Shown here: piece by piece, positions 49,836 through 50,360 of the stretch | Layout of the letters: each line of letters begins with the position of its first letter | Position numbering within the stretch: the stretch's first letter is position 1 | NCBI RefSeq assembly: GCF_044324875.1 | Contig: NZ_CP172185.1 | DNA: 64,000 nucleotides | Origin: Escherichia coli | Lineage (GTDB): Bacteria > Pseudomonadota > Gammaproteobacteria > Enterobacterales > Enterobacteriaceae | Reading direction: 5' to 3' (one strand) | Program-made: the position numbers and the translations under genes | Notes under the pieces: model-generated | What the model saw: only the letters and a program-made list of their open reading frames with translations | Database searches by the model: none | What the model was told of the DNA's origin: nothing

Positions 49836-50360
49836 TTATGGGATGATACCACAGGCAATTCTTGCACCACCGCCACCTAGAGGTTCAGGATGGTCATCAT
49901 GATTATCACCTCCTGCGTGGAGCATTAGCGAACGGCCATCGAGCTCCTTTAATTCAGATAGTCTTGGCGCAAGCACCGGGTAGGTTGCTTTTCCGTCATG
50001 AGTGACATAAAGCGCAGGGAGATCACCCAGGTGGCCATCAGGAGACCATGGACCGAGATGCTTCCCTGTTTTTTCCGGGTCAAAGTGACCACCTGCAGAT
50101 AAAGCAGCGACAGTTTTTCCATCTTTCAGGGCAGGAGCACAACTTGCGTTTTCATGTACATGAAAACCATGAATGCCGGCGGGTAAGGAGTGAAGATCAG
50201 GGGTGAACAGCAGCCCGTAGGGTGTCTTCTGGATGGTTATTTTACCAATATTTCGCTCTTTTCCGTCACTATCAACAAGATTCATTGTTACATCTTTGGT
50301 GGCTGCATATCCACAGGATGATGTAGCCAGAATCACAAAGGCAATAAGTTTACGTTTCAT
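49836..50360 (-). CDS. sodC: periplasmic Cu,Zn superoxide dismutase (SodC paralog)
   Basis: 174-aa ORF with signal peptide and metal-binding His cluster HGFHVHE...GGHFDP...[10 protein letters not shown]. Confidence 0.9.

Follow-up and report, generated by a model that had tools for sequence, protein, structure and literature searches.

A second sodC of predicted phage type in island DNA of Escherichia coli

What is the standing of a gene for a Cu,Zn superoxide dismutase (SodC) that lies in accessory DNA of Escherichia coli, between an insertion sequence (IS) and an ATP-binding cassette (ABC) importer? The gene in question, sodC, is on contig NZ_CP172185.1 (assembly GCF_044324875.1), within a 64-kb stretch that we analysed as a whole and call the window. 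It could be the core sodC of the strain in a new place, the cargo of a prophage, a working part of the importer operon, a silent passenger, or an enzyme acquired in addition to the core one. We favour the last of these, with a probability of about 0.85: a second periplasmic Cu,Zn superoxide dismutase of the phage type that is functional, was acquired horizontally and is carried by an island that is not a prophage.

Identity, copy number and class of the island enzyme

Matching genomes annotate the open reading frame (ORF) as sodC, and its product matches both the Pfam profile Sod_Cu (PF00080; E 6.2e-32, 111.3 bits against a cut-off of 28.9) and, over residues 1-173 of 174, the NCBIfam equivalog NF007628 'superoxide dismutase [Cu-Zn] SodC' (218.4 bits against a cut-off of 165). 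In a search of solved structures in the PDB, Salmonella SodCI came first (1eqw and 6d52; E 1e-64) and 1eso, the E. coli core enzyme, ranked eleventh. We aligned the island protein with four other enteric SodCs. Invariant among the five are the copper ligands H67, H69 and H148 with the bridging H92, the zinc ligands H101, H110 and D113, the disulfide pair C74 and C170, and the catalytic R167, roles that we take from established knowledge of Cu,Zn superoxide dismutases. The N-terminus has a positive n-region (MKRK), then a hydrophobic core, then an A-x-A-type cleavage site (GYA/A), and the cleavage column coincides with the start of mature E. coli SodC (1eso, which begins ASEK); the first 20 residues look like a signal peptide for Sec export. 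The initial annotation had described a complete SodC with a signal peptide and metal-binding histidines, and the above-cut-off profile matches and invariant ligands bear this out. As far as sequence can tell, this is a complete, intact gene for a periplasmic Cu,Zn superoxide dismutase, and one that was horizontally acquired.

To place the gene among E. coli, we compared it by blastn with 5426 complete genomes, requiring at least 95% identity for the core gene and at least 99% for the island allele. K-12 sodC DNA was present in 5425 of the 5426. The window's allele was found in 125, at 148 places in total, with at least 99% identity in every one of the 125. These carriers, which include APEC O2-211, are mostly non-O157, whereas a prophage-type sodC, 76-77% identical to the window allele, accounts for 571 further records. 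The window itself holds a single sodC, and no complete genome matches it over its whole length. The closest genome is that of ECCNB12-2 (NZ_CP033635.1), 99.8% identical over 24 kb and the only record to cover at least 80% of that 24-kb query; it matches the window from ~15 kb on, with gaps at ~16.1-17.1 kb and ~32.4-35.0 kb. ECCNB12-2 has both genes: the island sodC at 5195590-5196114 and, flanked by ydhK and ydhF, a core sodC at 2441543-2442064 whose product differs from K-12 SodC by one residue. The island gene lies elsewhere than the ydhK-ydhF locus, and its divergence from core sodC is such that blastn does not connect the two across genomes. That the gene is a second copy in the window strain is therefore supported by the 5425/5426 frequency and by near-identical strains. 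The initial annotation had called it a sodC paralog, a claim that would have failed had the genome no other sodC; the near-universal core gene, present alongside the island one in ECCNB12-2, removes that objection. The gene is thus an extra copy, but not a duplicate of core sodC: at 57% amino acid identity, it is a horizontally acquired homologue. Some genomes have two or three copies of the window allele besides core sodC; strain CM2 has three.

Amino acid identity of the island SodC is highest to SodC-F of Shiga toxin (Stx) phages (80%), followed by SodCIII of Fels-1 and SodCI of Gifsy-2 (62% each). In a large protein search, the only closer sequences were other E. coli variants at 77-83%, and the next relatives with a named source were Salmonella, Serratia and Pseudomonas proteins at ~65-67%. 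The ratio of nonsynonymous to synonymous divergence (dN/dS) is 0.08 against sodC-F, with a synonymous divergence (dS) of 1.46, and 0.09 against a Klebsiella variant; against core sodC, dS is about 2. The low dN/dS and the dS of ~1.5 against sodC-F indicate that the lineage is old and under purifying selection, rather than a recent escape from an O157 phage.

We then compared the dimer interface, at the positions equivalent to Y26, V29, M41 and W83 of Photobacterium leiognathi SodC. For V29, M41 and W83, structures of mutants are deposited in the PDB, and our choice of positions presumes, besides these, general knowledge of the family. The island SodC has Y48, L51, I63 and W105 there. Dimeric SodC-F has Y, L, I and W and SodCI has Y, L, I and Y, whereas in the monomers, K-12 SodC and Salmonella SodCII, the first position is K or G, the second E or K and the third E, and the fourth is lost to a one-residue deletion. 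Of the alignment columns, 29 tell the two monomers apart from the three dimers; in 22 of these the island protein sides with the dimers, in 1 with the monomers, and in 6 it differs from both groups. Because of these interface residues and dimer-like columns, we predict that the island SodC is a dimer of the stable, highly active phage-type class.

The nearest characterised relatives are SodC-F1 and SodC-F2 of O157:H7 prophages. SodC-F1 is dimeric and about 3-fold more active than core SodC (19380 versus 6290 U/mg), resists proteinase K and chelators, is expressed independently of RpoS, and associates in part with the membrane by way of an AASC lipobox; signal peptidases I and II both process SodC-F, and sodC-F mutants of O157 have raised H2O2 sensitivity (PMC2569942). 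The island enzyme shares with SodC-F the metal ligands and the Y, L, I, W interface, a Cys at the end of the signal-peptide core, its occurrence as an extra copy beside core sodC, and a hairpin after the stop codon. The Cys is residue 16, in a lipobox-like TSSC that occupies the same alignment column as the AASC of SodC-F, and by analogy dual processing, or partial lipid anchoring, is possible for the island protein. SodCI and SodCIII are likewise horizontally acquired, dimer-type extra Cu,Zn superoxide dismutases, but their genes lie among phage tail genes, with upstream regions unrelated to that of the island sodC, and it is for Salmonella SodCI, not for the island SodC, that a virulence role has been shown. 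Core SodC (b1646; 1eso) and Salmonella SodCII share family, fold, ligands and periplasmic location with the island protein; they differ in being monomers whose interface positions hold charged residues or a deletion, and the core E. coli gene is fixed at ydhK-ydhF.

Island setting and mobility of the sodC stretch

The DNA that holds sodC is accessory genomic-island DNA: it is variable in presence, rich in IS elements and atypical in composition. GC content swings from 37% to 62% across 44-56 kb of the window and is 39.5% for 48677..49835, 48.3% for sodC and 57.4% for the ABC operon. Elements annotated in the matching record include IS2, IS1414, IS3 and IS66. OrfB of the IS2 beside sodC scores 702 bits against a cut-off of 597 for the NCBIfam model, and the element's DNA has a best match of 99.3%, most records falling between 95% and 99%. 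The features around sodC are collected in Table 1. The initial annotation had set the gene in accessory DNA between IS2 and an ABC importer, and both parts of that description hold: the segment is strain-variable, IS-rich, unlike its neighbours in composition and found at both kps and setC sites, and it is bounded by the IS2 and the four-gene importer operon.

Table 1 Features around the island sodC, in window coordinates
Feature	Position	Strand	Basis and remarks
IS2	47346..48676	minus	1331 bp; left edge of conserved block; OrfB match to NCBIfam 'IS2 transposase TnpB', ends read directly
AT-rich DNA, no recognised gene	48677..49316		Travels with sodC in E. coli; shared block starts right after IS2
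Two-gene core stretch (74-aa ORF, sodC, 64-nt leader)	49317..50424		85.5% nucleotide identity to K. pneumoniae contig L024, 201..1307
74-aa ORF, hypothetical protein WP_024210520.1	49483..49707	plus	Convergent with sodC; homologues near sodC relatives
Stem-loop, possible terminator	49806..49828	minus	Sequence scan; 9-bp stem, 8 nt past sodC stop, weak U-tract
sodC coding sequence	49836..50360	minus	ORF list; 174 aa, ATG start, end includes stop; RefSeq WP_000823671.1
Signal peptide, aa 1-20 (predicted)	50301..50360	minus	Alignments; cleavage column is the mature N-terminus of 1eso
Proximal leader, 64 nt	50361..50424	minus	Ribosome-binding site AGAGGG; kept in every chromosomal context examined
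Junction DNA of the importer side	50425..50455	minus	Upstream alignment; distal upstream block of relatives missing
ABC importer operon	50456..54365	minus	Pfam/NCBIfam profiles; same strand as and directly upstream of sodC
Importer binding protein	50456..51535	minus	
Importer permease	51554..52438	minus	
Importer permease	52435..53301	minus	
Importer ATPase	53298..54365	minus	
Glycerophosphodiester phosphodiesterase	54581..55411	plus	Divergent from importer
ROK-family regulator	55427..56539	plus	Divergent from importer
aa, amino acid; nt, nucleotide

Similar island content is found at different chromosomal sites in different strains. In the window, positions 1..~14900 are a group-2 kps capsule locus, best matched by strains other than ECCNB12-2 (93-100% coverage, up to 99.9% identity) and followed by a yee/CP4-like module at 15037..25160. 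We take the kps locus to adjoin pheV; no tRNA gene lies within the 64-kb window, and no tRNA or integrase end of the island was seen. In ECCNB12-2, the island block adjoins setC, yicL and nlpA, a site that K-12 gene order identifies as the selC locus. The block there is also beside an ETT2 remnant (eilA and eip genes, air/eaeX), and an IS256-family element of the window (39903..41179; IS1414 according to the matching record) matches three sites of the ECCNB12-2 island.

The block that strains share runs from 48677 to at least 62000, complete in ~19 records among the matches listed, and contains sodC, the importer, the phosphodiesterase, the ROK regulator, a yebF pseudogene, an AbgT transporter and an S6 autotransporter protease. 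The AbgT-family transporter gene and the yebF pseudogene (57.3-59.5 kb) precede the protease gene, which encodes ~1274 amino acids by the matching record's annotation and ends the conserved block at ~59.9-63.7 kb. The importer is not a constant companion of sodC: it is present in 30 of the 125 carriers, and most carriers are without it. LS45 has the sodC DNA without the importer, beside dpt/dnd phosphorothioation genes, and EC17CM6 has it beside IS66.

The sodC stretch is also found on plasmids. IncF plasmids of poultry E. coli and of E. albertii carry, next to the yacAB toxin-antitoxin genes, a 924-bp piece corresponding to window positions 49612..50535, which holds sodC but, of the 74-aa ORF, the 3' end alone. 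Its right junction is identical in all three plasmids examined; its left junction is an IS2 terminal repeat in two of the three, with a full IS2 in one (L005) and a 51-bp remnant in the other (L004). The piece retains 80 nt of the binding-protein gene, which indicates that it derives from the arrangement seen in the window. In Klebsiella pneumoniae, a contig matches the two-gene core stretch of Table 1 with a SodC of 91% amino acid identity; that stretch sits downstream of a FecCD/Peripla_BP_2 ABC importer, unrelated to the one in the window. A separate sodC variant, P0003 (82% amino acid identity, 175 aa), is on plasmids of ~90-110 kb such as CP024150.1, which have P1-type ParAB, and there adjoins an IS3-family transposase.

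The 74-aa ORF that accompanies sodC had no Pfam or PHROG match, and its family numbers 8 relatives among 5.8 billion proteins. A homologue lies beside the K. pneumoniae sodC relative in the same layout (81% amino acid identity, dN/dS 0.22). Others, at 56% identity (E 1e-28), are in three metagenome contigs (L020-L022), where they are upstream of sodC and divergent from it. Two of these contigs (L020 and L021) have a 71%-identical sodC near a gene for a 723-aa KatG-type catalase-peroxidase, a neighbour that suggests a small oxidative-stress gene cluster. We considered a bolder reading of these associations, in which sodC and the 74-aa ORF would be a small oxidative-stress unit that predates its present hosts, the sodC part now being spread by IS2 onto IncF plasmids, and in which the 74-aa protein would be a new partner of SodC, acting in regulation or metal loading. 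Taken as a whole, we think this unlikely.

The upstream junction and competing explanations

Plasmid copies, judged from the extent of the module, keep the 64-nt leader as the chromosomal copies do. Going upstream, the window's homology to the Klebsiella contig and to E. coli copies that lack the importer breaks off precisely at position 50424, 64 nt from the start codon. We aligned the upstream regions of LS45, the window, Klebsiella, the plasmid-borne P0003 variant and Stx2-phage sodC-F, and split the alignment at -64. Over ~75 columns upstream of -64, LS45 is identical to Klebsiella at 61/74, to P0003 at 49/72 and to Stx2-phage sodC-F at 47/73 positions (64%), and to the window at 28/69. 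From -64 to -1, the corresponding figures are 58/64, 35/63, 33/63 (52%) and 64/64. In the comparisons with the phage and plasmid variants, conservation is higher in the block beyond -64 than in the proximal leader. The window sequence past -64 runs into the 3' end of the binding-protein gene instead of this distal block. Given that the block is conserved among the relatives and absent from the window, the importer-fused arrangement is the derived one. The lost block was presumably a regulatory element.

Several points weigh against a functional second enzyme. With the distal block of its relatives absent, the window copy could be poorly expressed, and a consensus scan of the 95-nt intergenic region found no sigma-70 promoter on the sodC strand. 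The TSSC of the signal peptide has Thr at -3, which makes it a non-canonical lipobox. Activity, dimeric state and lipidation of the island allele are all extrapolated from related enzymes. As for hosts, an even sample of 60 carrier records out of the 125 included 30 (about half) from chicken, turkey or poultry products, a raw count in this collection that does not by itself show a role in birds; 9 were human, and the others came from dogs, mink, sheep, swine, kites, flies, water, or other or no stated sources.

Taken furthest, the missing block and the lack of a consensus promoter in the remaining 95 nt would make sodC an intact but silent or decaying passenger, its promoter removed by the fusion at -64. 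We consider this quite unlikely. Neither the ORF nor any catalytic residue is damaged, ~30 complete genomes retain the window-type junction, and the plasmid copies descend from that same junction. Consensus scans of the LS45, Klebsiella and Stx2-phage upstream regions likewise gave nothing usable on the sodC strand, and such scans are uninformative here because sodC-F, which is expressed experimentally (PMC2569942), also yielded no promoter. A sequence scan found no terminator between the binding-protein gene and sodC, so that read-through from the importer operon is possible. Transcripts of the window sodC probably come either from the ABC operon, by read-through, or from a proximal promoter that escaped the scans. 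One candidate element in the leader was set aside: a Zur-box-like palindrome, TGTTATTTCGCAACA (TGTTAT-N5-AACA; 50399..50413, minus strand), occurs once in the window, but 24 of 100 shuffled sequences gave at least one match.

If read-through does occur, sodC might be a working member of the importer operon, for example one whose importer supplies metal cofactors. The two are on the same strand, 95 nt apart and with no terminator detected between them, and the Klebsiella relative is also downstream of an ABC importer. However, we regard this as very unlikely. GC content breaks from 57% to 48% at the junction, which is a derived recombination point, and the Klebsiella importer belongs to a different family. 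A functional tie between importer and SodC is argued against by this compositional break and by the variable linkage of the two, the importer being present in less than a quarter of carriers. Moreover, the importer is not of the Znu or copper type, and is paired with the phosphodiesterase and the ROK regulator. Its domains are SBP_bac_8, two BPD_transp_1 permeases and ABC_tran; for the ATPase, the PhnT2, UgpC and PotA models come nearest, and the system resembles phosphonate, polyamine and glycerophosphodiester importers, in each case below the curated cut-offs. Its solute is probably organic.

A further possibility is that sodC is cargo of a lambdoid prophage, a 'moron' like sodCI, sodCIII and sodC-F. 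The closest characterised relative is indeed a prophage enzyme, and phage sodC genes lie among tail genes. In addition, homology at the Stx2-phage sodC-F locus reaches ~40 nt past the stop codon, spanning the hairpin, and the distal upstream block of other island-type copies is shared with that locus; the shared hairpin and block point to a common ancestral unit of gene plus flanks. Nevertheless, prophage carriage of the window copy is highly improbable. The homology between the window and the Stx2 phage is confined to the ORF, 8 nt upstream and ~40 nt downstream, the neighbours (IS2, importer, phosphodiesterase and ROK regulator) include no phage gene, and the dS of 1.46 marks an old split. 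A distant search with the left flank, 48640..49835, against 50,697 phage records gave a match at the IS2 end only, and comparison of 48600..50560 with the Stx2, Gifsy-2 and Fels-1 loci by blastn and tblastx found no phage remnants beside the ORF. The 74-aa ORF travels with the island sodC, and none was seen at the one Stx2-phage sodC-F locus examined. Finally, that the gene is the strain's sole sodC, relocated from the core, can be set aside almost entirely: the window strain is itself outside the complete-genome set and ECCNB12-2 does not match the window's first ~15 kb, but the core gene stands at ydhK-ydhF in 5425 of the 5426 genomes, ECCNB12-2 included, and a gene with 57% amino acid identity and a dS of about 2 cannot be a moved copy of it.

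The horizontally acquired second enzyme is thus the reading we retain. In it, the island SodC would be exported by Sec and would convert superoxide to O2 and H2O2 in the periplasm, adding to the monomeric core SodC, which is expressed only in aerobic stationary-phase cultures. As a member of a class more active and more resistant to proteases and chelators than the core enzyme, it may give the envelope extra protection against oxidants from outside, for instance the phagocyte burst or H2O2. The link to phagocyte resistance comes from the literature on Salmonella SodCI and O157 SodC-F (PMC2569942), not from this allele. The stretch of ~1.1 kb with sodC and the 74-aa ORF would have been shuffled by IS elements among E. 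coli islands, and recombination at -64 would have fused sodC behind the ABC operon, removing the distal upstream block.

Prior records and significance

The allele has been recorded before. D'Orazio et al. 2008 (PMC2569942) noted in strain SMS-3-5 an extra sodC resembling sodC-F, and we find that SMS-3-5 (NC_010498.1) carries the window allele at 99.7% nucleotide identity. WP_000823671, exactly the protein that the matching genomes annotate, is also labelled 'E. coli SodC2' in a sequence alignment shown in a Vibrio paper (PMC12352638). Both papers only list the sequence, without context, mobility or function, and sodC is unmentioned in a review of E. coli genomic islands and in papers on a pheV island, on selC, pheU and pheV in Shiga toxin-producing E. 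coli, and on a tkt1 island. The allele is thus catalogued and annotated but uncharacterised, within a well-understood enzyme class. New here are the non-phage, IS-driven vehicle, the spread to IncF plasmids, the linkage to the 74-aa ORF and the loss of the upstream block in the window arrangement.

These results extend a known story and open no new question. They show that the kind of enzyme known from phages also circulates outside them, both on islands of the pheV and selC types and on conjugative IncF plasmids, the latter common to poultry isolates of E. coli and E. albertii. The island sodC can conveniently serve to track IS2-mediated traffic between islands and plasmids. Extra periplasmic Cu,Zn superoxide dismutases are established fitness or virulence factors in Salmonella, where SodCI is the example, and the island sodC is a sensible candidate for a fitness gene in avian and extraintestinal strains of E. 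coli.

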